IMG/VR virus record: IMGVR_UViG_3300032046_000003
Span: 1-64,000 of that record
Origin: a virus
Lineage: Duplodnaviria > Heunggongvirae > Uroviricota > Caudoviricetes
Reading direction: 5' to 3' (one strand)
Length of the DNA stretch: 64,000 bases
Shown here: positions 4,140 to 22,294 of the stretch, in pieces
Numbering within the stretch: position 1 is the first letter of the stretch
Layout of the letters: each line of letters opens with the position of its first letter
Translations under genes and position numbers: made by a program
The notes under the pieces: generated by a model
Seen by the model: only the letters and a program-made list of their open reading frames with translations
What the model was told of the DNA's origin: nothing
Databases searched by the model: none

Positions 4140-4391
4140 ATGAGCAAATCTCTATTTGAGTTTAACGGTCATGTAATAGATTTAAACAAAATGGTCTTAA
4201 TGACTAAAATCATAAGAGACAGACAAGAAAACATTTACGAATTTAATATAGTTTTTGAGGGCGGTTTTAAGCAAGGATTTACACATAGTGACAAAGAAGC
4301 AATTGAAGGAGCATTCGAAATAATTAAAGGCAGTTGGGAGACTTATAAAAAAGACAGGGAAACAGCAGAACTAATAGATGCACCTATATAA
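4140..4391 (+). CDS. hypothetical protein
   Basis: ORF only. Confidence 0.35.
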   Translation: MSKSLFEFNGHVIDLNKMVLMTKIIRDRQENIYEFNIVFEGGFKQGFTHSDKEAIEGAFEIIKGSWETYKKDRETAELIDAPI

Positions 4392-4405: not shown

Positions 4406-4434
4406 TTTACATTGTTTAAATTACATGTTATAAT
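4406..4434 (+). promoter_or_regulatory. sigma70-like promoter TTTACA-17nt-TATAAT
   Basis: Hexamers read directly, 17-nt spacer; upstream of ORF 4453. Confidence 0.5.
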
Positions 4435-4452: not shown

Positions 4453-4686
4453 TTGAAACTCTATGAATGCGACAACGGGACTGTAATAGTTTTAGATAAC
4501 GTAGAATTTATAAATGGCGTTAATACGGAAAGATCCAAAACAGGCCATATTTTCTACGCTTTTAAGGTTAGGTTTGTTAGTGGGGAAGAATGTCTAATGA
4601 AAGCAGATTCAAAGAAAGAAGTAGATGAGTTCAGAAAAGACTTTCTTGCAGAATTAAAGAAATATAACATAGATCAATCCATATGA
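4453..4686 (+). CDS. hypothetical small protein (C-term ..IDQSI)
   Basis: TTG start after AGGAGAGG SD; stop overlaps next ATG (ATATGA). Confidence 0.4.
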   Translation: MKLYECDNGTVIVLDNVEFINGVNTERSKTGHIFYAFKVRFVSGEECLMKADSKKEVDEFRKDFLAELKKYNIDQSI

Positions 4687-4922
4687 ACAGATTATATTTT
4701 TTAGAGGATGACAGCTCGTTTATACTATCTGAAGTGCTCGGGGTCAGTGAGATTTATAAGTATAAAGGGATATACAAATATGACATTTATTGCAGAAGTA
4801 AAAGCTTAAATAATTTTCAATTTAATGATACTGAAAAAGAGAACGTAAAGAGATCAAGGGAAAAGTTGATAAAGGCTGTTGACAATTATTTAAGAGATGA
4901 AAAAATAGACCAAAGTATATAA
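4683..4922 (+). CDS. hypothetical small protein (C-term ..IDQSI)
   Basis: ATGA-coupled to previous gene; same C-terminal tetrapeptide. Confidence 0.4.
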   Translation: MNRLYFLEDDSSFILSEVLGVSEIYKYKGIYKYDIYCRSKSLNNFQFNDTEKENVKRSREKLIKAVDNYLRDEKIDQSI

Positions 4923-5001
4923 ACAAATAACAAGCAAAAAGCAGTTATTTCGGGCGGAATCCTGGAGTGACTGTTTTTTTGTTTTTAGAAAGGAGCAAAA
5001 C

Positions 5002-5761: not shown

Positions 5762-6268
5762 ATGGTAAGAATATCTAAGGTAATAGAATTAGGCTTGAGC
5801 GAACAGGTATTAGAAGCGTATAAGAGAACTAATAACTATTCAAAAGTCGCAAAAGAATTCAATTTGGGTGTGAATCATATAAGGAACTTTATATTGAGCA
5901 CTGAAAACAAAACTGATGAACTAATTACACAAGACAAGGTTTCGGCTAAAAAGAATCTCGTTCATTCCAATAATGCTCTTGAAAAGCTAGTAGAAAAACT
6001 AGAGGACATAGAAGGCTTGTTGGTGCAAATGAAGGATGAAGACGGAACCGTGACAGAAGGCAGGATAAGGGAGTACATTGTTGCCTGGAAAGGGGCAACA
6101 GAAACTTTGCAATGGTTTATAGACAAAAAGATCAAACTGCAAGAGACAATCGAGAATCAAGTATTCAGGGACAAGATAATAAAGGCAATCGAGGAGGCGT
6201 CCCCCGAAGTAGCCGCCAAGATAAAAGACGCGATAGAGAAAGAGCGCGACAAGTGGGGACTCGTGTAA
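5762..6268 (+). CDS. HTH domain protein
   Basis: N-terminal YSKVAKEFNLGVNHIRNFI helix-turn-helix, coiled-coil remainder. Confidence 0.4.
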   Translation: MVRISKVIELGLSEQVLEAYKRTNNYSKVAKEFNLGVNHIRNFILSTENKTDELITQDKVSAKKNLVHSNNALEKLVEKLEDIEGLLVQMKDEDGTVTEGRIREYIVAWKGATETLQWFIDKKIKLQETIENQVFRDKIIKAIEEASPEVAAKIKDAIEKERDKWGLV

Positions 6269-6457
6269 ATGGTCATAGACATTGCAATAATACACGATGT
6301 AATTGCAAGTGCAAAGAACAACAACTATTTGGAAGTCAGCGAAGACGTATATACGATATTAGAAAAACACATGAAGAACGGGAAATACCTGGGAATCAAA
6401 GTAGCGCTAAATGCGGCCATGAAAGATGGCTCAGCTAAATTACAACTAGGAGATTAA
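6269..6457 (+). CDS. hypothetical small protein
   Basis: ORF abutting previous stop. Confidence 0.3.
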   Translation: MVIDIAIIHDVIASAKNNNYLEVSEDVYTILEKHMKNGKYLGIKVALNAAMKDGSAKLQLGD

Positions 6458-6458
6458 A

Positions 6459-6905
6459 TTGGCAGACTTAACAAACAGATTCGCCGTATTGTTCGCTAAA
6501 ATAAATCAAGCTCAGCAGCAATTTCAAAATCAGTCTGTTTCTAAATCGGTGCCTGACATGCCCAAGGACGATGCGGAGAACAGAAGAGAGCAGAATCTCT
6601 TATATCCTGAAAAAGTCGGCAAAAAGATACGAGAGAACAAGCTCAAAAAAGAAGCAGAGTATAAGGCATTTGTCAAATCCCTGACCGACGGAGAGATTTC
6701 CAATCTCATGTTGTTAGGTAAAAAAGGCCAGTTGGTTATTTCAAAGGATATGCTTAAATCAATAGGCGAAGACGGAACTGACCTAGAATTAGATAGGTTA
6801 GACGACTACAAATTAATAAAAAGAGAGATTATTCAGGATGACGGGCTGATTCAGTTCAGTCTCACCTCATTAGGTCGCAGAGTATTGGGAGATTTAAATT
6901 TATGA
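6459..6905 (+). CDS. hypothetical protein
   Basis: TTG start after AGGAG. Confidence 0.4.
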   Translation: MADLTNRFAVLFAKINQAQQQFQNQSVSKSVPDMPKDDAENRREQNLLYPEKVGKKIRENKLKKEAEYKAFVKSLTDGEISNLMLLGKKGQLVISKDMLKSIGEDGTDLELDRLDDYKLIKREIIQDDGLIQFSLTSLGRRVLGDLNL

Positions 6906-6983
6906 GCCGTCCAGTAAACAAAGTCATGTTAATGACAAACTATACCGGTTAGGTATAATACAAAGGACGACTCTTTAATAATT

Positions 6984-7613
6984 ATGAAAAATTTATTGCC
7001 AATATTAAAATCTGAAACTATAATCCCCCTTGAGGGTTTCACTCCCGAGCAGTCGGTGAGAATAGAAAAAATACTCGCTAAGGTTCCTAAAAATATTGTA
7101 GCCGGAACTTTCAGCAAGATAGCGATGGATGCCGATATGGGAGACGGCGAAAAGTATAGAGCATATGGACGATATGATTCAAAAACTAAAATCATGATGA
7201 TAAGTCCCAAAGCCTTTAAAACTAATCAAGAATTTGATGATGGCAAAAACAAGATGTCGAAACTTGAGCACGTAATAAGTCATGAAATTGCGCATTATAT
7301 TGATTTAAATCACGGCATATCAGAAGACCCCGAATGGCTAAAGCTCAGCGGATGGTCGCAGAAACCTGAAACTGATGAGCATGTGATGATGGTCATACCA
7401 CAAGAAGGAAAAGATAATTTAAAGAGCGGTTGGTATTACAACAAGAATTCTGATTTTCCGCGTTGGTACGGGAAACGGAGCCCCCGCGATGACTTCGCGG
7501 AGTGCTTTGCTTTTTATGTAGGTGGGCTATATGACAGGTTCAAGGACAAAAACAAATTAAACTATATCAAGAATAAAATGAATAAATTGGGATTAGCGGG
7601 AAATTCAGTATAA
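6984..7613 (+). CDS. HExxH zinc-metallopeptidase-like protein
   Basis: HEIAHYIDLNHG motif. Confidence 0.5.
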   Translation: MKNLLPILKSETIIPLEGFTPEQSVRIEKILAKVPKNIVAGTFSKIAMDADMGDGEKYRAYGRYDSKTKIMMISPKAFKTNQEFDDGKNKMSKLEHVISHEIAHYIDLNHGISEDPEWLKLSGWSQKPETDEHVMMVIPQEGKDNLKSGWYYNKNSDFPRWYGKRSPRDDFAECFAFYVGGLYDRFKDKNKLNYIKNKMNKLGLAGNSV

Positions 7614-7619
7614 AGGAAA

Positions 7620-7829
7620 GTGAAGTTAATGGATCTAGAATCTGCAGAAATTAGTTTTAAATTCAAGATCGCGGTGCTGGTCTTGAATAGGCGGATAACA
7701 GATGGTGATTATATGTTAATGCACGGCCGCATAAAGAGAGAACTGAAAGAATGGGCAGACACCTGCGGCGGCAAGATAATACTACCCAACAGGAAAGTTG
7801 CGGTCGCCAAGTTCGTGGCGAAGAGGTGA
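7620..7829 (+). CDS. hypothetical protein
   Basis: GTG start after AGGAAAGTG; ORF. Confidence 0.3.
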   Translation: MKLMDLESAEISFKFKIAVLVLNRRITDGDYMLMHGRIKRELKEWADTCGGKIILPNRKVAVAKFVAKR

Positions 7830-7838
7830 AAAATAGAT

Positions 7839-8123
7839 ATGTCAAACATACCTGAAGTGCCGTTTATATTCACAGACCGCGGTGATAACGCGGGCAATGG
7901 GATGACACCAGTGGCTATGACAGATAACACGCATAACTCGCAAGAAAAAACATTCATCAATTTCAACATAGAGAAAATACGCAACGGGTTCCTGTTGCAG
8001 CAATCTGATGGTATCAGGAACAAAGTTTACTGTTCTACTATAAGCAATCTTAATAACATCCTCATAGAGGCTATTAAGGCTGCGTTCAGGGAATCTGTTA
8101 TAAAAGAAGGCGAGAGCATATGA
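7839..8123 (+). CDS. small protein, member 1 of coupled array (C-term EGESI)
   Basis: Stop embedded in GAGAGCATATGA junction. Confidence 0.4.
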   Translation: MSNIPEVPFIFTDRGDNAGNGMTPVAMTDNTHNSQEKTFINFNIEKIRNGFLLQQSDGIRNKVYCSTISNLNNILIEAIKAAFRESVIKEGESI

Positions 8124-8533
8124 ACTTGGCAGGTGACTTCGATCCCTGGACAGAACACGAAATGAGACTTGAAAGAGAGCGGGTGACAAACCGAGCGCTG
8201 GACAGGCTGTTGAATGTGCAATTGCCCCAGGAACGTGACAATGATGTAGACAGGTACGGTGCCATAAGGGACGCCATCAGGGGCGGCGCCATGGACAACG
8301 TGCCCTTGAGCCTGGGGAGCAGGCCTTGGCGGACCGAAGAGGCCCTCAAGAAAAGAGACGCCAAAAACAAGACTTTCAACATAGACGCGGAGACGATCAA
8401 GAACGGCTATATCCTGTACTTGGCCGGAGAAAAACTGTTTTGCAGGAGCGTTGACGAGATAATAGCCTGCATAGGCGAGCACATAAGGAAGAGCTACAGC
8501 AACGAGATCGTGAAAGAGGGAGAGTCCCTTTAA
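8120..8533 (+). CDS. small protein of coupled array (C-term EGESL)
   Basis: ATGA overlap upstream, TAATG overlap downstream; GC-rich. Confidence 0.4.
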   Translation: MNLAGDFDPWTEHEMRLERERVTNRALDRLLNVQLPQERDNDVDRYGAIRDAIRGGAMDNVPLSLGSRPWRTEEALKKRDAKNKTFNIDAETIKNGYILYLAGEKLFCRSVDEIIACIGEHIRKSYSNEIVKEGESL

Positions 8534-8757
8534 TGGCATCAAGCGAGAATTTTGCAGTGGAATCACCCGAGGTAGATCCAGACGGCGGAAGGGTGGAAGC
8601 GGCAGACCTTAGGTTTGAAGTCAGGGAGTTCTCAAACGGCTTGAACGTATCAGGTAAAATAGTAATAGGCAGTCTGGACGATTTGATGATAGGCAACAAG
8701 CCTATAATCGAAGCTATAAAAGAAGCCCTATGTAAACCGTTAGACGAGAGCATATGA
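8533..8757 (+). CDS. small protein of coupled array (C-term DESI)
   Basis: Junction GACGAGAGCATATGA. Confidence 0.4.
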   Translation: MASSENFAVESPEVDPDGGRVEAADLRFEVREFSNGLNVSGKIVIGSLDDLMIGNKPIIEAIKEALCKPLDESI

Positions 8758-9143
8758 TAGTCAAAGAGTTCGAAGAGAACAGCTTCGCGCTTGCCGATAT
8801 GTCTAAGATGATAAAAGAGCTCTGGCACTCAGGACTTACCAGAGAAGACATCTATTTTACAATAGGCACCGAAATAGCGAAACATTTAGAATTATTAATA
8901 GGAATGAATTTTTCATATACGTCCAATCCTCATGGTTTATCGCGAGCATTATTGCCCGGCGAGATAGACCGAATCTGGGGGGTCAAGGTGCTGTTGAACT
9001 CATCGCCGGAATTCGCCTGCAGGGTGAAGCTTGACGTCATTTACGACATGCAGAATTTCATTGATGACTTGAATCATGAATTGAAATTCACCGCCTCAAA
9101 GCAGAAAATGAGCGATTGGTGCATCATGGAGGAGAGCCTATGA
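8754..9143 (+). CDS. small protein of coupled array (C-term EESL)
   Basis: Junction GAGGAGAGCCTATGA. Confidence 0.4.
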   Translation: MIVKEFEENSFALADMSKMIKELWHSGLTREDIYFTIGTEIAKHLELLIGMNFSYTSNPHGLSRALLPGEIDRIWGVKVLLNSSPEFACRVKLDVIYDMQNFIDDLNHELKFTASKQKMSDWCIMEESL

Positions 9144-9403
9144 GTTATATGAGTGCTTTGGACGTAGACAGAAGAAACGATGCAGTTTATTCAGACCCTA
9201 TGACTAACGCGATAAAAGACATCGCGATTGACGCTAACGGTTTAATAGAACATAATTTCATCAGGAAAATAGCTCCTATTGAACCATTAAGTAGATATTA
9301 CGCCAAGCCCGTAGAAGAGGTATTATTAGTGATCAGGGCCAAATTGAACGAGATAATCAGGCATGTCAATAAAAACGTAGAGACGCTGGACGAGAGCCTA
9401 TAG
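9116..9403 (+). CDS. small protein of coupled array (C-term DESL)
   Basis: ends GACGAGAGCCTATAG. Confidence 0.4.
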   Translation: MVHHGGEPMSYMSALDVDRRNDAVYSDPMTNAIKDIAIDANGLIEHNFIRKIAPIEPLSRYYAKPVEEVLLVIRAKLNEIIRHVNKNVETLDESL

Positions 9404-9411
9404 GAGGATTT

Positions 9412-9822
9412 ATGAGCACAGCAGACCCAAAAGACACGGAAGCGATAACAGCAAGCATGAGTTTCAGCTCGGCGTCGCCACGCTATCATGCATATACCGA
9501 CACAGGTACAGAGCCTCATACTTATGGGGAATACATAGACAGAAGCAATGCAAATTCCATACAGGACAACAGCAACACAGACTGGACGGTTGCGAGGGAC
9601 AACACGGCAAACCCAAGGGACTACACCATTACGCCCTGGAGACCCGACAGGCAAAGAGAGCAAACAGCCGCAGAAGAGCAATATGCTCCCTATCAAGTCC
9701 CTTATATCGCGCCCAACGTACCGTCGAGAGTGGAAGAGCTGATATTGGAAGAGCTGAAGGCCATAAGGAAATTACTGGGGGAAAGCAAAACCCCGATAAT
9801 CATACGCGATGAGGCTATTTAA
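9412..9822 (+). CDS. small protein of coupled array (C-term DEAI)
   Basis: Next ATG embedded in GATGAGGCT. Confidence 0.4.
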   Translation: MSTADPKDTEAITASMSFSSASPRYHAYTDTGTEPHTYGEYIDRSNANSIQDNSNTDWTVARDNTANPRDYTITPWRPDRQREQTAAEEQYAPYQVPYIAPNVPSRVEELILEELKAIRKLLGESKTPIIIRDEAI

Positions 9823-10129
9823 ATTGCCGAGTGAACAGATAGAACTGAAAAGAGTGCAAGACTCCTTCGAGGGGGAAATGCAGCATCAAGAGTGGATAAG
9901 ACAACAATTAATTGAGCGACAGCAGTCTGCAGAGAGTGAAAGAGAAAAATGGGAACTGAGGCGGGGAATGCAGTTACAGCAAAGATTCTTACCTGAAACA
10001 AGAGAAGAGACGGCTAGACGATTTGAGATAGATTGGAACGCGGCATGGGACGAGGGAAACAAGGCTTTAAATAAGCCCCCTCAAGTAGACAAGCTGAAAG
10101 AGCTGGGTATTGCAGATGAGTCCATCTAA
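9809..10129 (+). CDS. small protein of coupled array (C-term DESI)
   Basis: ends GATGAGTCCATCTAA. Confidence 0.4.
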   Translation: MRLFKLPSEQIELKRVQDSFEGEMQHQEWIRQQLIERQQSAESEREKWELRRGMQLQQRFLPETREETARRFEIDWNAAWDEGNKALNKPPQVDKLKELGIADESI

Positions 10130-10403
10130 TATAGAATCGCTTAAGTGGACGGCCACGGCCTATCAGCCCAATTTGAACGTTTCGCCCGAATTGACAGAGA
10201 CAAACCTGCGAGACGCCTTGGACAACATGAGAGACCAGATGCAGAATCACACGATGACATATGGCGGAGTGCAATTGATAGTGAGTCCCGCCTTAGCAAA
10301 TGAAATAGCTTATTTAATGAATGATAGATCTGTTATTAAAGCAGAGTTCAATAAAAAGGTAGACAATATGACAAAGTATGGAATACAAGATGAGTCAATT
10401 TAG
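10116..10403 (+). CDS. small protein of coupled array (C-term DESI)
   Basis: ATG 10116 embedded in previous DES codons (track start 10110 is TTG). Confidence 0.4.
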   Translation: MSPSNIESLKWTATAYQPNLNVSPELTETNLRDALDNMRDQMQNHTMTYGGVQLIVSPALANEIAYLMNDRSVIKAEFNKKVDNMTKYGIQDESI

Positions 10404-10758
10404 AATAGATTATATTGGTCACAATATGGAAGTTGATTACCATCAAGGCGAACCTGAAACTGAATTAGAGTTTTATAGAGAGCAAGTTGAACTGCTAAGA
10501 CGGGAAAGAGATTCATTAAGTGAAACAGTCGCCAAATTAAGTGTGACTGGCAATGAGGATATTGAAACAGGTAGATTAAGACAAATTGTAAGGATTATGT
10601 ACAAATATCTGTTTCAATACCCCAATCTTATGGACGCGATAAGCAAAGAGATGGAAGAGAGGGAGCTCTTAGTGGACAACAAGTTCAACGTGGGCACGTT
10701 TGACATGTTGAACAAAATGTTCAAGTTAAACATTCTGGCAGAAGACGAAAGCATATGA
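10378..10758 (+). CDS. small protein of coupled array (C-term DESI)
   Basis: Alternative in-frame ATG at 10390 embedded in previous DES codons. Confidence 0.4.
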   Translation: MEYKMSQFRIDYIGHNMEVDYHQGEPETELEFYREQVELLRRERDSLSETVAKLSVTGNEDIETGRLRQIVRIMYKYLFQYPNLMDAISKEMEERELLVDNKFNVGTFDMLNKMFKLNILAEDESI

Positions 10759-11018
10759 CATATCGCACTTTGCCCGACAGACAGGTTGATATGGACTCGA
10801 TACAGAAAGCCTTGGTGCACAGCATAGACGCAGACGCCATAGGGATTATAATCAAGATGAAGGAAAACGCGCCTGAAGGGTATTTAAACATGTTCAGAGA
10901 GTATGTAAACGCCTGTTTCCCGCAGCTCAAGGACAAGATCCTGATAACAGCGGGAGTAGACTACGACATAATACAGATACGCAGCAGGCACCCGCATCTG
11001 TTCGAGGAAAGCCTATGA
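10755..11018 (+). CDS. small protein of coupled array (C-term EESL)
   Basis: Junction GAAAGCATATGA then GAAAGCCTATGA. Confidence 0.4.
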   Translation: MTYRTLPDRQVDMDSIQKALVHSIDADAIGIIIKMKENAPEGYLNMFREYVNACFPQLKDKILITAGVDYDIIQIRSRHPHLFEESL

Positions 11019-11197
11019 CAAAAAGCTTTTATTGCATTGATTGCTTATGTTATTGTGAAATCGAAAGCACAAAAAACGATCTTTCTTATTGTCCCAAATG
11101 CGGAAGCAGCATGATTGAAAAAATAGAAAATAATATTTACAAAGAATACGAAGAAAGTAAATATAGCAGGTATGGTATCGTGCAGGAAAGCCTGTGA
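11015..11197 (+). CDS. small zinc-ribbon protein of coupled array (C-term QESL)
   Basis: CIDC..CYC..CPKCG; junction GAAAGCCTGTGA. Confidence 0.4.
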   Translation: MTKSFYCIDCLCYCEIESTKNDLSYCPKCGSSMIEKIENNIYKEYEESKYSRYGIVQESL

Positions 11198-11388
11198 ACA
11201 AGATAACCCGGTTCCTGCTGGAGAAAGAGATGGAGAAAAACACGGAGGCCATAGAAAAGCTTCAAATTGAACTTGGAGAAGTCACTGTGAACAACCCCAA
11301 ACTAGTCCAAATTGAATCTTTGATAAAATCTAATGAAGCAATGCAGAAAGTCCTAAGCAAAGAGGAGCGGACATGCGAGACACGATAG
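11194..11388 (+). CDS. small coiled-coil protein of array
   Basis: GTG start overlapping previous stop. Confidence 0.35.
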   Translation: MNKITRFLLEKEMEKNTEAIEKLQIELGEVTVNNPKLVQIESLIKSNEAMQKVLSKEERTCETR

Positions 11389-11795
11389 AGCTGATAAGAA
11401 CAAGTAGTGAGAATACTTTTACGGGACACAATACTCAATTAAAGATCAACGGTGTTTTAGTTAGTGGTATAATATCTTTTAATTACGCCTCTAGAGAACA
11501 TGAGTTAGATTCAAGGTATAGCGTTCCTAATGAACCTAGAATAACTTCTTGGGGATTTGATTCAACTGCGCCTATAATATCTCTTGAGGGGGTACATGTT
11601 AATCGTAATGAGAGATTGGAACAATATTTCAAACCTGAGAATATAAAATCTTATAATTACAGGTCAACTGCAGAGAACGTAAATAGAGAATACATAGAAT
11701 TATACGCTAATAGAATAGACATGATATGGTATAAAAACAAAGTTGATATTAAAGAGTATCTTAGGGGCAGTGGCATTCTAGATGAAAGTGTATGA
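11373..11795 (+). CDS. small protein of array (C-term DESV)
   Basis: ends GATGAAAGTGTATGA. Confidence 0.4.
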   Translation: MRDTIELIRTSSENTFTGHNTQLKINGVLVSGIISFNYASREHELDSRYSVPNEPRITSWGFDSTAPIISLEGVHVNRNERLEQYFKPENIKSYNYRSTAENVNREYIELYANRIDMIWYKNKVDIKEYLRGSGILDESV

Positions 11796-14490: not shown

Positions 14491-15240
14491 ATGACATCAG
14501 GTAAATATATAAAAACTAAACGGCACATATTAAATCAAATTGCTTCTAGAAGAGAACATGGCTGGAATAAAAACCCTGAAGAGGTTAATAAGAAAATAAG
14601 TAAATCATTAAAAGGGATTAAATCTTCTAAGAAAAGTAAAACTTATGAAGAATTTTATGGTGTGGAAAGATCAAAAGAAATAATAAAAAAACAAAGTGAA
14701 GTTAAATTTATTCCTAGGGAAACTCGAGTTTGCGCGTGTGGATGTGAACAATCATTTAGATGTAAAATTAATTCTATAAAGAGATTTTCTCAAGGTCATT
14801 ATAATAAGGGTAAAACTTATGAACAACTATATGGCATTGAAAAAGCTAAAGAATTAAAATTAAATTATAAAAAGAATAGAGCAATTAGACAATTTCCTTA
14901 TAATGACACAAAGCCAGAATTAGCGTTGGACAAAATTTTACAACAATTAAAATTAAGATATGTTAAACAAAAGTATGAATTAGAGGGCACTCCCGATAGA
15001 TTTATAGAGCCTAATATCTGTATTTTTGTTGACGGTGATTACTGGCATGCTAATCCTAAGTTTTACAAGTCTAAAGATTTAATAGCTAATAATTATACTG
15101 CACGAGAAAAATGGAGCAAAGATAATAAAATAACTAAAGATTTAAAGTCTCAAGGTTTTAAGGTTTTAAGGTTTTGGGAGTATGACATTAAGAATGATAC
15201 AAATAAATGTATTGAGGAGATAAAAAGTTGTTTGACTTAA
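14491..15240 (+). CDS. homing endonuclease: NUMOD3-like repeats + CxCGC zinc motif + Vsr-like nuclease
   Basis: ISKSLKGIK / YGIEKAKEL repeats, RVCACGCEQSFRCKINS..FSQGH, C-term FIEPNICIFVDGDYWH..KVLRFWEYDI. Confidence 0.7.
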   Translation: MTSGKYIKTKRHILNQIASRREHGWNKNPEEVNKKISKSLKGIKSSKKSKTYEEFYGVERSKEIIKKQSEVKFIPRETRVCACGCEQSFRCKINSIKRFSQGHYNKGKTYEQLYGIEKAKELKLNYKKNRAIRQFPYNDTKPELALDKILQQLKLRYVKQKYELEGTPDRFIEPNICIFVDGDYWHANPKFYKSKDLIANNYTAREKWSKDNKITKDLKSQGFKVLRFWEYDIKNDTNKCIEEIKSCLT

Positions 15241-16142
15241 AAAGTATTGCATTAAATGTAGTTAAATGGATAGCAATCGTATTGTTAGCCTTGTTCTTGG
15301 GTTACCAAGGGTGGAGACTCGTGGTTACGTATTACAATCCCTTTACTTTTGTGCAAGAGATACAGAACGCATTGGCCAACAATCATCAGACTGAAGTCGC
15401 CTATGAGAAGCTAAAGGGCGAATTGTCCCAGGCCCAGACTGTTAATACGACCAACAAGAAGTTGTTGACCGAGAAAATCAATCAGATAAGCTTGCTGGTC
15501 AAAGACAAAGAAGCCTTAAAAGCGCAGTTGGACAAGATGAACGCCGAAGGGCAGATTATCAGCGAAGCCGAGACAGGACAAGGAAGCGTCACATTAGAGG
15601 CCTGGCTGGAGAGCAAGATGCCTTTCAAGTTCCATGATGGATGGCAGGACATAGACGTAATAGGACCCAACAAATTACATTATAAATGGCACTTTGATAT
15701 TCATGATATATCGATACAGACCAAGGACGAGAACAACAACGTAACTACCATTTATACTGTGTATCTGCAGAATCGAGACGGAGCCAAACTGTACTTGGAC
15801 TATAAGAAGAGTTTTGTCGATCAAAAACCCGAGTATCATCTGTTGAACTGGTGGGATCCGAAGATAAGAATGACTAATTTTGCTGGAATTAAAGGAGTGG
15901 AGTTCGGAGGAGCTTTATCTTTATGTTCAGTATCACTTTCACAAAAACAAAAAGATTATCTATTAGTTTTTCCAGAAATATCAATGTCATCTAATTTCAG
16001 AGAAGGCATGGATATAGGAATTGGCGGCGGAATAAATATTGCGCACTGGCTCCCACTTTTTGAAAATCTTTGGGTAGACGGTAGACTAGTTTTAACAGAT
16101 TATGATAAAACTTCAGTAATTGGCATAGGAGTTACATTATAA
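15228..16142 (+). CDS. membrane-anchored protein with coiled coil
   Basis: N-terminal TM segment then coiled-coil; function unknown. Confidence 0.45.
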   Translation: MFDLKSIALNVVKWIAIVLLALFLGYQGWRLVVTYYNPFTFVQEIQNALANNHQTEVAYEKLKGELSQAQTVNTTNKKLLTEKINQISLLVKDKEALKAQLDKMNAEGQIISEAETGQGSVTLEAWLESKMPFKFHDGWQDIDVIGPNKLHYKWHFDIHDISIQTKDENNNVTTIYTVYLQNRDGAKLYLDYKKSFVDQKPEYHLLNWWDPKIRMTNFAGIKGVEFGGALSLCSVSLSQKQKDYLLVFPEISMSSNFREGMDIGIGGGINIAHWLPLFENLWVDGRLVLTDYDKTSVIGIGVTL

Positions 16143-16252
16143 ATGCCCCAATGGTGGAACGGGAGACACACTAGCCTTAGAAGCTAGCGCCTTAGCGGGC
16201 ATGCTAGTTCAAATCTAGCTTGGGGTATTGCTTCTAGGCTTGGAGACCTAAT

Positions 16253-16465
16253 TTGAAAAATATCAAAGAACTCTTAGGCCCTATTCTTTTATTTTGTTCG
16301 TTCATATTGCTTATATATATAGTTATATGGGGATTCCGGCTGAAGCAGTGGTATGATTTTAATCAAATGCCCAACGTGTGGCAGATTGATAATGGAAATA
16401 TAATGCAAATTAAACAAGATGGTAAATGGTTAAATAATGGCCCTAAGATTAGTCTAATTAACTAA
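16253..16465 (+). CDS. small membrane protein
   Basis: TM helix ORF. Confidence 0.35.
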   Translation: MKNIKELLGPILLFCSFILLIYIVIWGFRLKQWYDFNQMPNVWQIDNGNIMQIKQDGKWLNNGPKISLIN

Positions 16466-16514
16466 TCGACGGTGCTTGTACACCAAGGGCCTTAATCTAT
16501 ACAAGGAGATTAGC
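16439..16514 (+). repeat. HEG-associated conserved structured element, copy 1
   Basis: ..CTAAGATTAGTCTAATTAACTAATCGACGGTGCTTGTACACCAAGGGCCTTAATCT..AAGGAGATTAGC; outer stem GGCCCT/AGGGCC. Confidence 0.55.
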
Positions 16515-17129
16515 ATGAAATTATGTGAATGTAATTGTGGACAATTAGCTAAAAACAGATTCATTAATGGCCATAATAATAGAGGAAAGCCTTCTACATT
16601 TAAAGGAAGACACCACACAGAAGAAGCAAGAATGAATATAAGTAAAGCTTTAATGGGACATAAATATCCTAAAGAAAGAAACGAAAAAATTAGCAAAACA
16701 ATGAAAGGCAAAAAGAAAGCGCCTTTTACTGAAATACATAAGAATCATATAAGTGAGGCTCGTAAAGGTATTAAATTTTCTAGACAACACACAAGAAAGC
16801 TAAGATTAAAAACTATTGAAAGAATAAATAAAAATTTTGGTATTTGTTTTCCAGCTTATAATAAAAAAGCTTGTGAATTCTTTAAAAGTTATGATAACAT
16901 ACACAACACTCAAGGCCATTATGCAATGTATGGCGGCGGGGAATATCTTATTAAAGAGCTTGGCTATTGGCTAGATTACATCAATTTTGACAAGAAGATA
17001 ATTATAGAGTGGGACGAAATAAAGCATTATAATGAAGGAGGGGAGCTAAAAAGTAAAGATAAAATTAGGCAACAAGAGATTGAGCAAATGTATCCCGATT
17101 TCAAATTTATAAGAATAAGAGAGGTGTAA
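16515..17129 (+). CDS. homing endonuclease-like protein (CxC zinc motif + NUMOD3-like repeats + C-terminal nuclease-like domain)
   Basis: MKLCECNCG..NGHNN; HTEEARMNISKALMG, NEKISKTMKGKK, HISEARKGIKF repeats; ATG 16515 after AAGGAGATTAGC. Confidence 0.6.
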   Translation: MKLCECNCGQLAKNRFINGHNNRGKPSTFKGRHHTEEARMNISKALMGHKYPKERNEKISKTMKGKKKAPFTEIHKNHISEARKGIKFSRQHTRKLRLKTIERINKNFGICFPAYNKKACEFFKSYDNIHNTQGHYAMYGGGEYLIKELGYWLDYINFDKKIIIEWDEIKHYNEGGELKSKDKIRQQEIEQMYPDFKFIRIREV

Positions 17130-17133
17130 TTAA

Positions 17134-17349
17134 ATGGTTATGAGAGACGGAATTTCGATTCAGAGGGACATGAATCTGGTGAACAAGGAATTGGCTAAGC
17201 TGACTGTAGACATGAACAAGTGGAATACAAGAAGGGCGGAGCTTGAATTAGAAGCCGCAGAGATTAGAGAGGTAATGTTTAATCAGCAAGTAGAGGAAAT
17301 GAAGAAAAAGCAGGCCGCAGAAGCTGCTCCTAAGACAGAACAAAAGTAA
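17134..17349 (+). CDS. coiled-coil protein
   Basis: ORF. Confidence 0.35.
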   Translation: MVMRDGISIQRDMNLVNKELAKLTVDMNKWNTRRAELELEAAEIREVMFNQQVEEMKKKQAAEAAPKTEQK

Positions 17350-17364
17350 GGAGTAAAAATAAAA

Positions 17365-17559
17365 ATGTTGAACATAACAGCGTTAAGAGCCGAGCTTCTC
17401 CAGGAGAAAAGAAAGGAGCTCCTTAAAGAGCTCATCAATATGGACATTAAGTCCAGGTTGGACGAATGGATAGACAAAGACTTATATGAGAAGGCCAAGA
17501 AGTCTATAAATGTGATAGAGGACATGCTGCATGACCAGCCCACTCCGCTCGAAAAGTGA
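17365..17559 (+). CDS. hypothetical protein
   Basis: ORF. Confidence 0.35.
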   Translation: MLNITALRAELLQEKRKELLKELINMDIKSRLDEWIDKDLYEKAKKSINVIEDMLHDQPTPLEK

Positions 17560-17725
17560 CTTTGTAAGATACGGAGTTTGCACCGAGTGCGGGAAGCTGT
17601 TCAAGGCCTCTGCGGACAATAAAGAGGCTGAAATAACTATTTTAGACACGATAAGGGAATTCTGGAAGCCCGGCATTTGCGAGACGTGTAAGAAAGAAAA
17701 GGAGGAGTACAGTGGAAGAAGATAA
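17531..17725 (+). CDS. small zinc-ribbon protein
   Basis: CTECGKLF...CETCKK. Confidence 0.35.
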   Translation: MTSPLRSKSDFVRYGVCTECGKLFKASADNKEAEITILDTIREFWKPGICETCKKEKEEYSGRR

Positions 17726-18158
17726 AGCTTTTGATATTGGCGAATTTGTAGTAAGAAATGAGCATTTTGCCGCCACGTATTTTATAGACGCTTTTCTCGA
17801 CCCTACTCTTCTTAAAATAAAGATGAACGATCTGGGACTAAATAAGACCGATTGGACTTTAGATGGTACGCTGTTAGATACAGCAATAAGCGATACGTTA
17901 TATGATATAGACCCTGCTACAATGCTTGATTCTAAATGTAAGATTATCAAGAAAAAAGTGCATAGGGTGATATTAAAGTTTAAAAGATCAGCTAGGGTTA
18001 AGCTCGAGATGTTTAATATTTATTCAATGGGCGACAACGACAAAAAAGAGTACATATTAGAGTCTCTGAAAGAACCTTCAGTTGCTCAAGCAGAAGCCTT
18101 TGTTAAAAAAGTGGTTAATATGTTAATAAAAGAATACGAGGAGTACATAAATGGTTAG
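17712..18158 (+). CDS. hypothetical protein
   Basis: ORF. Confidence 0.4.
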   Translation: MEEDKAFDIGEFVVRNEHFAATYFIDAFLDPTLLKIKMNDLGLNKTDWTLDGTLLDTAISDTLYDIDPATMLDSKCKIIKKKVHRVILKFKRSARVKLEMFNIYSMGDNDKKEYILESLKEPSVAQAEAFVKKVVNMLIKEYEEYING

Positions 18159-18402
18159 GGTTTTAGCATCTATAAGATTCAAAGACGAGGTAATGTTGGA
18201 CAGCGGTAATCCTGCAAGAGACATGAGACAAGCGTATATTGACAAAGCCATATTGACTTTGACAGAGAAAATCATAATTGTCTCGTCTGAGAACAAGGTC
18301 ACCAAGACGGACGTTTATGTGCCTTGGACCAATGTGGTTTCTATGAAGATATACCAGACAATAGAAGGTGATTTGGCTAAATTTCTAGATAATAAGTTAT
18401 AA
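18151..18402 (+). CDS. hypothetical protein
   Basis: ORF. Confidence 0.35.
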   Translation: MVRVLASIRFKDEVMLDSGNPARDMRQAYIDKAILTLTEKIIIVSSENKVTKTDVYVPWTNVVSMKIYQTIEGDLAKFLDNKL

Positions 18403-18407
18403 AATAT

Positions 18408-18704
18408 ATGAGCATTCTCAACATAAAAAACGAAATATCGTCCCTAATATCGACCAAATATGCTGGCAGATTTAATGAGGACATCGAGTCTTCTATCGCG
18501 GCTGACATGACCCAGATATTGGTAAAATATCAGAAAGCGGCGCAGATAAACAATTTTTCAAACGTGACTGTAAAGAAAATGAGCGATATAATAGTCAAGA
18601 GTAGAGTGGTGAAAAGCTATACCAACACGGTTAAAATAAGGGCGGCTATATACCCTTCTTTCGTAGGGTCTATAATCAAGTTTGACTTTGATGTTAGGCT
18701 GTAA
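18408..18704 (+). CDS. hypothetical protein
   Basis: ORF. Confidence 0.35.
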   Translation: MSILNIKNEISSLISTKYAGRFNEDIESSIAADMTQILVKYQKAAQINNFSNVTVKKMSDIIVKSRVVKSYTNTVKIRAAIYPSFVGSIIKFDFDVRL

Positions 18705-18707
18705 TAT

Positions 18708-18736
18708 TTTACAAATAGACAGTTATAAGGTATAAT
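18708..18736 (+). promoter_or_regulatory. sigma70-like promoter TTTACA-17-TATAAT
   Basis: Hexamers and spacing read directly; 20 nt upstream of REC gene. Confidence 0.5.
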
Positions 18737-18756
18737 ATATATATTAGGAGATTATA

Positions 18757-19152
18757 ATGCGAATTTTCATCCTCGAAGACAACAGTGAGAGAGTAAAATC
18801 TTTCAAAAAAATATTCAAAGACCACGAATTGACCATTACAGACAGATCTGACGATGCTATAAAACTCGTCAAAGACAGCAAATACGATTTTATATTCTTG
18901 GACCACGATCTGGGCGGAGAGCAATACGTAGACAGCAAGGAATACGACACGGGCTTTAGAGTGGCCTGCGCGATTCCTTCATCTGTAAATGAGGGCACAG
19001 ACGTTATAATACACTCTTTTAATCCAGTGGGGGCCAAGAACATGCAGAATATCTTGCCTAACGCCAGGTGCATGCCTTTTGGGACATTTAATGAGAACAC
19101 AATACTTGAAATGAAGAAAGACGACTATGAGCAACTGAGGCTGATGATGTGA
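18757..19152 (+). CDS. stand-alone response-regulator receiver (CheY-like REC) domain protein
   Basis: FILEDN..DFIFLDHDL (phospho-acceptor Asp) ..K pattern, 131 aa, no output domain. Confidence 0.7.
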   Translation: MRIFILEDNSERVKSFKKIFKDHELTITDRSDDAIKLVKDSKYDFIFLDHDLGGEQYVDSKEYDTGFRVACAIPSSVNEGTDVIIHSFNPVGAKNMQNILPNARCMPFGTFNENTILEMKKDDYEQLRLMM

Positions 19153-19637
19153 GCAGGTCGGACATAATTCAGCTTATATTTATAGTATTATTCTTAATTA
19201 ATCTCATATGGGCTACCAGAAAAGATTGGTATGCGATGTTTATTATCTGCATGCCTTTTAACGTAGCCAAGTTCATGATGAGGACTCCCGAACTAGTAAG
19301 TTGGGTAATGTCAAAAATACCTTATGCATCTGACAAGACGGTCTATGGCGAGGCGGAGCATTGGGCGACACCACAAGAATTCTGGGATCACAAAAGCGGT
19401 GATTGCGAAGATTATGCAGGATTTGCCATAGGAATACTGAAAGATTACGACTATCAAGGAAATATATACACATACACGGTAGACCCGGTCAAAGGAATAG
19501 GGCACGCTCTCGGCGTGGTCAGCAAGGACTTGAGGAACTGGTATGTGTTTGACCTTAACGAGGTTACGTTAGTTAGGGCAGATAACTGGCAGGCCGCCGG
19601 AGACTGGTATGTCGCGAACGTCTCTAGATTGGTGTAA
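19149..19637 (+). CDS. transglutaminase-like cysteine peptidase with N-terminal TM anchor
   Basis: GDCEDYAGFA (Cys), GIGHALGVV (His), FDLN (Asp) core. Confidence 0.6.
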   Translation: MSRSDIIQLIFIVLFLINLIWATRKDWYAMFIICMPFNVAKFMMRTPELVSWVMSKIPYASDKTVYGEAEHWATPQEFWDHKSGDCEDYAGFAIGILKDYDYQGNIYTYTVDPVKGIGHALGVVSKDLRNWYVFDLNEVTLVRADNWQAAGDWYVANVSRLV

Positions 19638-19771
19638 TGCAAAGCTTCTTAATAGGCGCCTTGTGTTATGCTGTAGGTATAATAATCTATTTATATTTTG
19701 TGCATTTGGCCATTACACAAAAGATCAATAGTGTTATAAAAGATATAAAAAGCAGGTTCAAAAGGAGATAA
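19637..19771 (+). CDS. small single-TM protein (44 aa)
   Basis: Own translation MQSFLIGALCYAVGIIIYLYFVHL..; TAATG overlap with previous stop. Confidence 0.3.
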   Translation: MQSFLIGALCYAVGIIIYLYFVHLAITQKINSVIKDIKSRFKRR

Positions 19772-19773
19772 GT

Positions 19774-19929
19774 ATGAGAAGAGCGAAAGTAAAGCAGCAG
19801 AACAAGAAAAAGTTGTATGAGAAGTGGAAGAAAGAAAGAGGAGAGGCCAGGACAAAGGGTGAGAAGCTGACCGGCATATTAAAGGACTGGGGCGGGTATT
19901 ACTCTAAGAATAAATCAGCAACGAAGTAA
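19774..19929 (+). CDS. small basic protein (51 aa)
   Basis: Own translation MRRAKVKQQNKKKLYEKWKKERGE..; SD AAAGGAGATAAGT. Confidence 0.35.
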   Translation: MRRAKVKQQNKKKLYEKWKKERGEARTKGEKLTGILKDWGGYYSKNKSATK

Positions 19930-20006
19930 AGATAGCGGTAGAGCCTGAATAGCCCCGCTATACACATAAAAAATAGGAGGTGATTTTTTTCTAAGAGGTG
20001 ATATAG

Positions 20007-20189
20007 ATGTCAAATGGTTTTGGTAATAAGAATAGAATGCACTTAAAATTCACTGCTTTCAGATTATGGGGAACTAAAGACGAACGAAAAGAAACCTATC
20101 GTGGTATAAGAAGATATATAAAGCAAACATTGAACAAGATTAAGTTTGATTATAAGGAGAAGCAAAATGAACGACTATACAGAAGGTAA
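20007..20189 (+). CDS. hypothetical small protein
   Basis: ORF. Confidence 0.3.
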   Translation: MSNGFGNKNRMHLKFTAFRLWGTKDERKETYRGIRRYIKQTLNKIKFDYKEKQNERLYRR

Positions 20190-20598
20190 AGATATAGAGG
20201 AAATCGCCGTCCAATTAATAAAGGACAATGAATTATTAAAGAGTAATAAAGCTGATCAATGCAAGATTTATTACTTATTTAAGAACAAGCAAGCGGCCTA
20301 TTTGGGCAAATGCTCGCTGGCGGCAGGCAAGTGGAAGTACCTTACAGGGGCCAACTTCGTCATTGAATTCGTAAAGCCTCAATGGGACGACCTGGATGAC
20401 AATCAGAAAGAAGCCGCCGTATTCCACGAATTGCTGCACATAGGGTTCGATGAGAAAGAAAAAGACGGAAAGCTCGAAATAAAATGGGGAGTCGTAAAGC
20501 ACGACATAGAGGAATTCGGAGCGGTAGTCAAGAAATACGGTGCCTGGCACGATGCTTTACACAGCTTTATAGAAGATGCTAAAAACTCTGATAAGTAA
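20167..20598 (+). CDS. HExxH metallopeptidase-like protein
   Basis: FHELLHIGFDEKE; ATG 20167 after AGGAGAAGC. Confidence 0.45.
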   Translation: MNDYTEGKDIEEIAVQLIKDNELLKSNKADQCKIYYLFKNKQAAYLGKCSLAAGKWKYLTGANFVIEFVKPQWDDLDDNQKEAAVFHELLHIGFDEKEKDGKLEIKWGVVKHDIEEFGAVVKKYGAWHDALHSFIEDAKNSDK

Positions 20599-20875
20599 CA
20601 TATTCTATTTTACATTGCCCCTTATATCCGATAAGGATGTGACAGGGTGGAAAATAAGCCTGGGCAGAATATCGTGGTGGCTGTTGCTCTATACGGCGAC
20701 TAAATACAGCTGGGCATTGTGCAAAGACGCCCCCTCGACGCTGATAGCGGTAATGGGCTTTCTGCTCACGTATATATTCACAGGCAAGGTGCCCGACATG
20801 GCCACTGCGATTAAGGCCAAATTGAATGGCAACGGAAACTCCGCAAAGGGCGTAGACGACAACGCGGCGAAATAA
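20576..20875 (+). CDS. membrane protein
   Basis: Two or three TM helices. Confidence 0.3.
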   Translation: MLKTLISNIFYFTLPLISDKDVTGWKISLGRISWWLLLYTATKYSWALCKDAPSTLIAVMGFLLTYIFTGKVPDMATAIKAKLNGNGNSAKGVDDNAAK

Positions 20876-20876
20876 C

Positions 20877-21044
20877 ATGCTGTATGATTATGAATGCGCT
20901 AAATGCGGCAAGATAGAGATAGACAGAAAACTGGACGAAGAGATCAAAAAGTGCCCTGAATGCGGAAGCAAGATCAAAAGGCTGTACTTCCCGGTATCTG
21001 CCGTTTTCAAAGGCAAGGGGTTTTACAAGACGGACCACAAATGA
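20877..21044 (+). CDS. FmdB-family zinc-ribbon protein (55 aa)
   Basis: Own translation MLYDYECAKCGK...CPECGSKI; below track cutoff. Confidence 0.55.
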   Translation: MLYDYECAKCGKIEIDRKLDEEIKKCPECGSKIKRLYFPVSAVFKGKGFYKTDHK

Positions 21045-21161
21045 AAAAATTATGGGAAAAATTTTTAAACTGGTATTTTTGGAATGTTTTGGTTAAAAGA
21101 GACTTGGAATTTTGGAAAAAAGAAAACAGCCTCCAATGTGAGTTGAGGAAAACAATATAAA

Positions 21162-21467
21162 ATGAGAAGATTAATTTTTATATGTCTGCTGTGTCTGCTG
21201 TCTGTGCCCGCAAGCGGCATGATGTTGACAGGTTGGTATTACACAAGCGAGGCTTCGTATGAAAAAGACTGGCATCCCCAGAATGATTGTAAATATCTCA
21301 TAACTATTTACTGCCACACTAGGGAAGTTCAAGTGTCCAGGTGGCTGCCCGAGAGCAAATTCGAGGTTAAAGATTATAAAGAAAACGGATGCGGCGGCAT
21401 AATATTCTATACGACGAATAATGAGATAATAAATTACAATGGGATTTACACGATAGAAAAAAAATGA
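21162..21467 (+). CDS. secreted protein (signal peptide)
   Basis: MRRLIFICLLCLLSVPASG. Confidence 0.4.
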   Translation: MRRLIFICLLCLLSVPASGMMLTGWYYTSEASYEKDWHPQNDCKYLITIYCHTREVQVSRWLPESKFEVKDYKENGCGGIIFYTTNNEIINYNGIYTIEKK

Positions 21468-21566
21468 ACAAGCAAGAAAAGAAAATGTTTATAGAAGACA
21501 TGAAATGCCTCATTGTGCGAAGAATTTAACGTGATGGATGAAAGCATATAAAGCAAAGGAGACAAT

Positions 21567-21782
21567 ATGAAAGATTTTGATAAATTAGATTTCGGGGATA
21601 TATATATAATAAATGATAGAGGCTTGGGAATGTCTATATACAACAAAAGTGATAATAAAAAATTATGCATTTTCAATGAATTCGGATGTAGAGAATTAAT
21701 GTTATTTTTAACAAGAAAATTTATGCCTATAGGCGCCGAAGAACAGAACGACAAATTTGTATATGATATACACCAAAAATGA
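21567..21782 (+). CDS. hypothetical protein
   Basis: ORF after AAGGAGACAAT. Confidence 0.35.
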   Translation: MKDFDKLDFGDIYIINDRGLGMSIYNKSDNKKLCIFNEFGCRELMLFLTRKFMPIGAEEQNDKFVYDIHQK

Positions 21783-22294
21783 GAGTCACAAGCATTAAAT
21801 ATAACGAACCAGGAGTAAGCAAGTTTTTAATGGCGCTTGCTGAAAATTTCGCTCAAGATAACTTTGTGTATGTTAAGGAGTTCAAAAAACACCTTAAACT
21901 GGGCCCCAAAGATTCGGTAGACGTGATAGTCCTGTTGGAAGATGACAAGAAAATAACGCATCTGTACGACGGCTTGAACTACAAGCTGGGATTTAACGCC
22001 AAAGTGCCTACGTTTTTCAGGGGCAAAGACGGGAAGAGCCTCATGTTCCCGGGCGGATTTAACATATTGTTCGTTAATATAAATCAATTCAGAGCCTTGC
22101 ATCACAGATGGCATATAATCGCCGCAGTCGTAGAGAAAGATTTAATTTCAATAATTAGGGGCCGTATAATAGATGGCTATAAGGAAAGCATGCTGCTGGT
22201 GTTGGACCACAATTCTTATTTTAACGAGGACAAAGAGGTCATAGAGCTGTTCGCAGCCAAGCCCGCGAAAAAGGACTTACGCGAATATCTATGA
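21779..22294 (+). CDS. hypothetical protein
   Basis: ATGA-coupled ORF. Confidence 0.4.
   Translation: MRVTSIKYNEPGVSKFLMALAENFAQDNFVYVKEFKKHLKLGPKDSVDVIVLLEDDKKITHLYDGLNYKLGFNAKVPTFFRGKDGKSLMFPGGFNILFVNINQFRALHHRWHIIAAVVEKDLISIIRGRIIDGYKESMLLVLDHNSYFNEDKEVIELFAAKPAKKDLREYL

Follow-up and report, generated by a model that had tools for sequence, protein, structure and literature searches.

Small genes with a shared C-terminal tail

The stretch of DNA analysed here, referred to as the window, comprises 64,000 nucleotides (nt) of a virus of the Caudoviricetes (IMG/VR record IMGVR_UViG_3300032046_000003, positions 1 to 64,000) and carries at 7839-11795 a packed array of short genes, most of whose products end in the same few residues, a tail of the type Asp-Glu-Ser-Ile (DESI). 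The window belongs to a metagenomic contig of 178 kb (ENA ERZ27247683 k141_4014911), window position 1 being record position 28304, and the portion of that contig examined covers record positions 18930-101064 (82 kb). The open reading frames (ORFs) that bear the tail are listed here in gene order, together with the one ORF of the array that lacks it.

L002 7096-7485, upstream of the window: tail-bearing ORF ending GLLDESL; the most upstream member, overlapping by 14 nt the start of a Fic gene (together L002 7096-8062; L002 1-8062 is record ~18930-26990)
4453..4686, + strand: tail-bearing ORF of 77 residues ending NIDQSI; ATGA overlap with the next gene
4683..4922, + strand: tail-bearing ORF of 79 residues ending KIDQSI; a gap comes next, then a terminator-like hairpin (4936-4979)
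7839..8123, + strand: tail-bearing ORF of 94 residues ending IKEGESI; EGES family
8120..8533, + strand: tail-bearing ORF of 137 residues ending VKEGESL; EGES-family paralogue
8533..8757, + strand: tail-bearing ORF of 74 residues ending PLDESI; divergent EGES-family paralogue
8754..9143, + strand: tail-bearing ORF of 129 residues ending IMEESL; no homology to the EGES profile
9140..9403, + strand: tail-bearing ORF of 87 residues ending TLDESL; followed by an 8-nt spacer containing its own GGAGG
9412..9822, + strand: tail-bearing ORF of 136 residues ending IRDEAI, with Ala as the penultimate residue; the next ATG lies within GATGAG
9809..10129, + strand: tail-bearing ORF of 106 residues ending GIADESI; Ser codon TCC
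10116..10403, + strand: tail-bearing ORF of 95 residues ending GIQDESI; Ser codon TCA, stop TAG
10378..10758, + strand: tail-bearing ORF of 126 residues (122 if the start is the ATG at 10390) ending AEDESI
10755..11018, + strand: tail-bearing ORF of 87 residues ending LFEESL; its homologue, L086 370-621, ends VRDESI
11015..11197, + strand: tail-bearing ORF of 60 residues ending GIVQESL; CxxC...CxxC motifs (zinc-ribbon-like)
11194..11388, + strand: ORF of 64 residues without the tail, ending CETR; omitted by the ENA gene caller and of uncertain status
11373..11795, + strand: last tail-bearing ORF, 140 residues, ending GILDESV; followed by a 51-nt gap and no coupled gene

The tail proteins are 60-140 residues long and all acidic (isoelectric point 4.3-6.2). 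A reading made from the window's letters and ORF translations (the sequence-only reading) had described thirteen consecutive ORFs at 7839-11795 that all ended in (D/E)(E/Q)S(I/L). Thirteen ORFs do tile the + strand there, but the tail is found on only 12 of them, which read in order GESI, GESL, DESI, EESL, DESL, DEAI, DESI, DESI, DESI, EESL, QESL and DESV; four of these deviate from the strict form (two GES, one DEA and one final V). The two further members that it placed at 4453-4922 are borne out, 4453-4686 and 4683-4922 both ending IDQSI. A small ORF directly before them, of 83 residues (4140..4391, + strand), ends ELIDAPI, a tail like the IDQSI of its two downstream neighbours, and is, judged by its sequence, probably a degenerate member of the set.

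When a relaxed pattern, (D/E/Q/G)-(E/Q)-(S/A)-(I/L/V)-stop, was applied to six-frame ORFs of at least 40 residues, it was matched by 14 of the 330 ORFs in the window, all on the + strand and all located at 4453-4922 or 7839-11795, against about 0.1 expected from composition. A fifteenth tail-bearing ORF lies just upstream of the window. The same pattern was matched by none of 2,217 ORFs in control phage and bacterial loci (553 kb), and among 65 IMG/VR loci picked for the DNA string GAYGAGAGCATATGA, which encodes DESI-stop, none had more than one tail match and no arrays were seen. Chance is excluded by the clustering, by the low expectation, by the empty controls and by the lack of any IMG/VR locus with several matches. 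A 15-codon open frame ending MDESI-stop, without a start codon, also occurs at window 21507-21551 and could be either a chance occurrence or what is left of a tail-bearing gene that has decayed.

Tails from the window, the upstream member and the relatives described below were pooled (n=27) and numbered back from the last residue, P0. This residue is Ile, Leu or Val in 27/27; P-1 is Ser in 24/27, its variants being Ala (in DEAI) and also Pro or Thr; P-2 is Glu in 23/27; P-3 is Asp in 17/27, with Gly in the EGES family; and P-5 is Ile in 13/27 and any of Ile, Leu or Val in 17/27. The consensus is (I/L)-x-(D/N/E/G)-E-S-(I/L/V)-COOH, and no described targeting peptide or degron matching it was found in the literature.

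Peptide conservation and gene junctions

In the pooled tails, Ser is encoded by AGC (10), AGT (8), TCC (3) and TCA (3), Glu by GAA (11) and GAG (12), and Asp by GAT (9) and GAC (8); nine different codons are used for the last residue, and the stop is TGA in 14 tails, TAA in 9 and TAG in 4. Every synonymous site in the tails varies, and no single synonymous change converts the AGY box of Ser codons into the TCN box. The mixed Ser boxes, the variable synonymous sites and the three stops therefore indicate that selection acts on the peptide: the conserved element is the C-terminal peptide, not RNA or junction DNA. The sequence-only reading had explained the conservation by a nucleotide string doubling as a Shine-Dalgarno site for the downstream gene, a view contradicted by the varying codons and by tails that are kept without a coupled gene. 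Its suggestion of an RNA-level constraint fares no better, given the variable synonymous sites, the shortness of the DNA repeats at junctions (at most 19 nt, except for one 51-nt pair) and an Rfam scan in which no family reached its gathering score. The sole Rfam match, a ribosomal S15 leader at 4721-4835 inside gene 4683-4922 (33.5 bits against a gathering score of 39.5, E = 8e-5), is probably due to chance. Homologous arrays lacking the junction conservation had been named in advance as what would count against that reading; such conservation is absent at the nucleotide level from the relatives L081 and L086, and the peptide is kept.

Stop codons do overlap or abut the next start, as had been noted. 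At 12 of 15 junctions (window and upstream member) the start is placed in or at the tail codons, through 7 ATGA/GTGA overlaps, 1 TAATG and 4 ATGs inside GAT-GAR, the other 3 junctions being gapped; in L081 and L086 together, a coupling-type junction follows 6 of 9 tail-bearing genes. The packing is thus tight and the translational coupling proposed earlier is plausible, but it does not explain why the tail is conserved. The tail is found without a coupled downstream gene after 4922 (spacing ~80 nt), 11795 (51 nt), L081 4646 and L086 1192, and it is kept at 9403-9412, where a separate canonical GGAGG in the spacer is available to the following gene. Some other junctions have the following start codon ahead of the tail, which then cannot be its ribosome-binding site. 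The usual ribosome-binding sites of the phage are canonical AGGAG, and a 4-nt Shine-Dalgarno core is present in only 3 of the 7 ATGA/GTGA junctions, as GAGG, GGAG or AGGA derived from purine-rich Asp, Glu and Gly codons. Coupling also cannot explain the Ser or the aliphatic end, because the only base of the last codon that an ATGA overlap dictates is the third. Altogether, translational coupling along the array appears to be genuine but secondary.

The single long junction repeat is a 51-nt direct repeat with 71% identity (window 10085-10135 and 10359-10409) at the 3' ends of genes 9809 and 10116, where it spans the last 14 codons, the stop and 6 further bases of both. It suggests that tail-containing 3' ends may have been copied from gene to gene.

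Carrier proteins, relatives and phage setting

That the proteins are otherwise dissimilar, as previously described, is true of most of them, but the products of 7839, 8120 and (weakly) 8533 are detectable paralogues, the EGES family. In an all-against-all BLAST of the tail proteins, related pairs were few. An EGES-family hidden Markov model (HMM) recruited no further ORF from the 82 kb of contig, and hhalign gave probabilities below 1% for a 10-sequence EGES-family profile against three other tail proteins. Among 10 array proteins scanned, none had a Pfam match at the curated cut-off or a PHROGs match better than E = 0.024; tblastn of all 16 proteins against 50,697 phage records returned no match, nor did a second concatenated set, and a word-indexed search with 8120-8533 returned near-identical sequences only. 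The body types also differ, from the beta-beta-beta-alpha domain of the EGES family to the CxxC...CxxC 60-mer (11015) and the 136-mer of gene 9412, which has a compositional bias (Thr/Asp/Asn/Pro-rich) across most of its length. An AlphaFold2 (AF2) model of the 7839 protein, built from a 10-sequence alignment, comprises a disordered segment (residues 1-35) and a beta-beta-beta-alpha domain (42-91) with a predicted local distance difference test score (pLDDT) of ~90, for which no solved structure in the PDB was matched better than E = 0.8. Model confidence declines across the final residues, in agreement with an earlier model of the 8120 protein, and this drop is consistent with a tail that would lie exposed outside the folded domain and behave as a linear motif in the EGES family.

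Close variants of the locus (L003, L074 and L077-L079, with 83-99.99% nucleotide identity) keep both gene order and tails and were used for substitution counts only, because they are too similar to test tail conservation. Synonymous to nonsynonymous changes against close relatives number 14:30, 9:16 and 1:15, mostly towards the N-terminus, with the tails unchanged. The 1:15 case compares window 7839-8008 with L074 3185-3355, that is, the N-terminal part of the first array gene, whose C-terminal domain and tail are conserved; the counts indicate very fast or diversifying evolution of the predicted disordered N-terminus of the 7839 protein.

More distant relatives were sought in an exhaustive HMM search with the profile of the 7839/8120/8533 family against 1.84 billion representative proteins, which yielded five distant homologues (at most 50% identity), all ending (R/Q/E/D)-E-G-E-S-(L/V). 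Besides the initial Met, the only invariant columns of the family are an N-G and the terminal E-S. One relative, L081 (6.5 kb, JGI 3300018080), is syntenic with the window, sharing a metallopeptidase-like gene (42% identity), an EGES gene, a small heat-shock protein (HSP20, 42%) and a 76-residue protein (50%), arranged in the same order; four of its small ORFs bear the tail (EEGESV, IYDESI, IYNESI and IINESI). Another, L086 (3.7 kb), whose demonstrated kinship to the window consists of EGES-family and tail-protein homology only, has five tail-bearing ORFs (IIDESI, VRDESI, ILDESI, ILDESL and DEGESV) and a DDTI variant. Apart from the EGES family and the pair L086 370/window 10755, the tail proteins of L081 and L086 have no homologue in the window. 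At ~40-50% protein identity, then, the tag appears to stay constant and the carrier proteins to be replaced. Close relatives were not found in IMG/VR when the metallopeptidase, HSP20 and Band_7 proteins were each used as a query, nor by searches there with family alignments A3 and A4.

The genes around the array, and a promoter match before the gene pair at 4453-4922, are as follows.

4406..4434, + strand: sigma-70-like promoter match (TTTACA-17-TG-TATAAT, 11/12) before the 4453-4922 gene pair; a consensus match only
6984..7613, + strand: HExxH metallopeptidase-like protein of 209 residues; first gene of the putative operon
7620..7829, + strand: small ORF without the tail (ends FVAKR), kept in the close relative L074
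12502..12954, + strand: phage small heat-shock protein (HSP20), a conserved gene downstream of the tail-gene slot in the window and L081

In L081, as in the window, the metallopeptidase-like gene adjoins an EGES gene. Its product was considered as a reader or processor of the tail and rejected as an obligatory partner: an unrelated ORF takes the place of the gene in L086, the gene is absent from L080, and its distant homologues, on three IMG/VR contigs and in three Bdellovibrionota/Oligoflexia metagenome-assembled genomes (MAGs), have no tails nearby. The only genome matches of this family (L125-L127, 27-38% identity) are those MAGs, of Bdellovibrionales, Oligoflexia and Bacteriovoracaceae, which may give a weak hint as to host range or gene origin.

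The source of the contig is, judging from its genes, a large tailed phage of an uncultured lineage. Its terminase large subunit lies at window 35979-37442 and its portal at 59772-61454, an S78 prohead protease and an HK97-type capsid gene sit just past the window end, and virtually every gene is on the + strand. There are 17 tRNA genes at window 16144-29363, most of them packed into 25167-29363 with small ORFs between. The portal is only ~26% identical to SPO1-like phage portals, and no DNA-level relatives were found among deposited phages. The tail genes occupy an early-looking region with sigma-70-like promoters, and an 839-residue ClpB/ClpC-like protein (L002 1-133; Clp_N and two AAA+ domains) is encoded ~7 kb upstream of the first tail-bearing gene. 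Downstream of the window, the Pfam Phage_capsid matches (L008 15439-15660 and 16495-17103) are spread over two short ORFs that a third one separates, a pattern that suggests a split or interrupted major capsid gene. A sugar-modification cluster of ~15 kb (window 33505-48505), with glycosyltransferases, two DegT-type aminotransferases, epimerases/dehydratases and an acetyltransferase, encloses the terminase large subunit gene. A Volactin-family actin-like gene (window 22614-24749) is split by an intein that bears homing-endonuclease motifs (HNH and NUMOD3); it is unusual for a phage to encode an intein-containing actin homologue. An Rce1-like (CPBP family) intramembrane protease is encoded at window 32707-33348; relatives of this family process protein C-termini.

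The array is GC-richer than its surroundings, as had been observed before, with 42-47% against ~33% elsewhere. The excess concerns mainly third codon positions (GC3 0.49 against 0.30), is shared by the upstream non-tail genes at 5762-7613 and is missing from the tail genes at 4453-4922 and 11015-11795. The GC patch is unrelated to the motif, because the tail occurs on low-GC3 genes and in relatives with a GC content of 32-34%; as a cause of the tail it was rejected, since non-tail genes share it and the tail genes at either end of the set lack it. It belongs to a wider mosaic of high GC3 (0.41-0.70 against a mean of 0.30) at 5762-11388, 15228-16142, 19149-20598, 21779-22294, 29900-31096 and 33505-34644, for which a different origin and a different expression class are both possibilities.

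A candidate docking tag and known terminal address peptides

The tail is proposed to serve as a modular tag for docking or targeting, recognised at the C-terminus by one common receptor; a probability of roughly 0.7 is given to this reading. The free C-terminus would dock into a pocket of this receptor, with contacts made by the terminal carboxylate, the aliphatic last residue, the invariant Glu-Ser and the upstream Ile. Any small body gaining the tail would join the same machine, so that bodies could be swapped, duplicated and diversified fast between related phages, with tag and reader staying fixed. The proposal draws on selection at the protein level, on carriers that are not homologous to one another, on the persistence of the tail across relatives and on its predicted exposure in one family; from these, a single reader and a purpose for recruitment are suggested. 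Several points weigh against it. The tail carriers amount to four independent genomes or fragments, three of them short contigs, and the tail is known here only from sequences and predicted structures. Among the precomputed Pfam matches for the 82 kb examined, there is no PDZ, TPR or tail-specific-protease domain. The tail could have spread partly by duplication of 3' ends, as in the 51-nt repeat, and not by independent acquisition. As to particular purposes, known Clp degrons are non-polar, unlike D-E-S-I; all tail proteins are acidic, a poor fit with co-packaging beside DNA; and the tail genes lie in an early-looking region distant from the head genes.

If the tail is a docking tag, three purposes can be considered, and their shares are conditional on that reading, on another scale than the absolute likelihoods used for the rival explanations below. 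The largest share, still a minority one, goes to hand-over to an AAA+ unfoldase or protease, with the tail acting as a degron or as an adaptor tether. A little behind would come procapsid loading, through which the proteins would be co-injected and the tail would parallel, at the C-terminus, the capsid targeting sequence (CTS) of phage T4, and binding of a conserved host hub protein would take a smaller share again.

Taken as explanations in their own right, the first two of these purposes are each doubtful. As a degron or tether for an AAA+ machine (the phage ClpB/ClpC-like ATPase, or host Clp, FtsH or Lon), the tail could serve the timed removal of early host-takeover proteins or their action as adaptors. 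The phage does encode its own Clp_N protein with two AAA+ domains ~7 kb upstream, and the region of the tail genes looks early and contains sigma-70-like promoters. A free carboxylate and an aliphatic end are moreover classic for recognition by ClpX/ClpA (ssrA LAA, MuA ...KKAI) and for SspB-type tethers. However, known Clp degrons differ in chemistry from D-E-S-I, enzymes of the ClpB type do not deliver substrates to proteases, and the tail is limited to a clustered subset of small early-region genes. Somewhat less likely still is a C-terminal capsid-loading signal, by which the tail proteins would be injected virion cargo and form an interchangeable anti-defence arsenal. In its favour, by analogy, are an evolutionary pattern that is the same as in the internal-protein loci of T-even phages (PMC3012670; PMC7411985), the fast evolution of the bodies and the loading of HK97-fold encapsulin shells by C-terminal peptides (PMC7355545); the phage also encodes an HK97-type capsid and an S78 prohead protease. 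Against this stand the acidity of all tail proteins, the early-type location of their genes, ~50 kb away from the head module, a prohead protease/scaffold protein that itself lacks the tail, and the number of different cargo species, at least 16, which would be many.

The remaining explanations do without a docking tag. That all tail genes are extremely diverged paralogues of one ancestor, the tail being a structural C-terminal cap, is unlikely. The genes are in tandem, alike in size and all acidic, and tandem duplication is evidently operating (three window paralogues, a further paralogous pair in L086 618 and L086 923, and the 51-nt repeat of 9809/10116). Yet no homology extends beyond a few pairs, even with profile methods, and the sequence features differ sharply between a zinc-ribbon-like CxxC protein, a protein of biased composition and a beta-beta-beta-alpha domain; in the sole family modelled, the tail falls outside the confident fold at low pLDDT, and a buried cap would have no need to keep its register to a free carboxyl end constant across proteins of 60-140 residues. 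Less probable still is that the P-1 Ser is a modification site, for AMPylation by the phage Fic protein or for phosphorylation, and the tail an enzyme recognition motif. Ser is present in 24/27 tails, and the tail-bearing gene furthest upstream shares 14 nt with a Fic-domain gene, but the functional-looking DEAI member has Ala, other variants have Pro or Thr, the site has no precedent, and the Fic adjacency is seen once only. The strict register of the motif to the carboxyl end favours end recognition over Ser modification. The least probable of all is that the junction nucleotides (GAGAGC-MT-ATGA) are conserved for Shine-Dalgarno function and stop/start coupling, the peptide being a by-product: 12 of 15 tails hold the next start in or at their codons and 3 of 7 ATGA/GTGA junctions have a Shine-Dalgarno-like core at suitable spacing, but the codons (Ser AGY 18 against TCN 6, all synonymous positions variable, three stops) largely refute it. 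Tails kept without a coupled gene or beside a separate GGAGG (9403-9412), a Ser and an aliphatic end that an ATGA overlap leaves unexplained, repeats of at most 19 nt and the lack of an Rfam family point the same way.

Host-takeover and anti-defence functions have their largest unexplored reservoir in small phage ORFs that lack database relatives, for which there is usually no means of grouping. Here, a C-terminal signature of 4-6 residues groups at least 27 such proteins from at least 4 phage genomes or fragments, and it predicts a shared partner. Should the tail be a targeting tag, it could become a compact, transferable tool for protein loading or recruitment, and it would be a new case of phages fixing an interface while cycling effectors in an arms race. 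Tentatively, and with less confidence than in the docking tag as such, an undescribed phage addressing system may also be hypothesized, in which a lineage-wide tag plugs any small effector into one receptor, either the procapsid or a phage AAA+ machine. If true, this would amount to a rapidly exchangeable arsenal of host-takeover or anti-defence proteins, and to the first C-terminal, non-cleaved counterpart of the T4 CTS. A search for several ORFs per 10 kb ending ES(I/L/V) could serve as a key to the lineage and its effectors in metagenomes.

Among known systems, repeated short sequences bordering small variable phage genes in plastic regions are also found as the PeSL (promoter early stem-loop) cassettes of T4 and the lambdoid gene-boundary sequences, both of them DNA elements that measure tens of bases and include a promoter or hairpin. 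The tail differs from these in that DNA identity at the junctions is limited to 19 nt apart from the one 51-nt pair and synonymous sites vary. Translationally coupled overlapping genes, in contrast, do describe the locus, at 12 of 15 junctions here and 6 of 9 in L081 and L086. Ligands of PDZ domains, SSB partners and ClpX-SspB are similar in that many clients are received by one pocket. The class III PDZ ligand pattern is x-(D/E)-x-hydrophobic-COOH, and the tail fits it, with Glu at P-2 in 23/27 and I/L/V at P0 in 27/27; a PDZ reader domain is not found among the precomputed Pfam matches for called genes at record positions 18930-101064. The C-terminal tip of SSB, unlike the tail, ends in an aromatic residue. 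Neither an LAA-like ssrA nor a MuA-like (RRKKAI) C-motif for ClpX is present, the tail being acidic-Ser-aliphatic and only DEAI ending in A-I.

Encapsulin cargo-loading peptides are Gly/Ser/Leu-rich and not acidic, with a consensus that differs from the tail. They resemble it as C-terminal peptides that address unrelated cargo and are sufficient to load it into an HK97-fold shell (PMC7355545). Encapsulin cargo genes adjoin the shell gene, whereas no shell gene was found near the array, the nearest Phage_capsid Pfam matches being >50 kb downstream. In giant phages, a C-terminal propeptide has been proposed to target the prohead protease. The T-even internal-protein loci likewise combine diverse bodies with a conserved targeting peptide (PMC3012670; PMC7411985). 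As with the T4 CTS (of IPI, IPII, IPIII and Alt), a short terminal peptide is borne by diverse small proteins from clustered genes, the bodies are replaced between phages, and the peptide rather than the body defines the group. The CTS, however, lies at the N-terminus, measures 10-20 residues and is cut off by the prohead protease at an (L/I)-x-E site, while the element described here consists of the last 4-6 C-terminal residues of acidic proteins, is known from sequences and predicted structures and has no sequence resemblance to it; no shared N-terminal motif was found among the tail proteins. Altogether, the tail appears, by analogy, to work on the principle of a shared terminal address peptide, as in the T4 CTS and encapsulin cargo, while departing from both in terminus, sequence and gene context.

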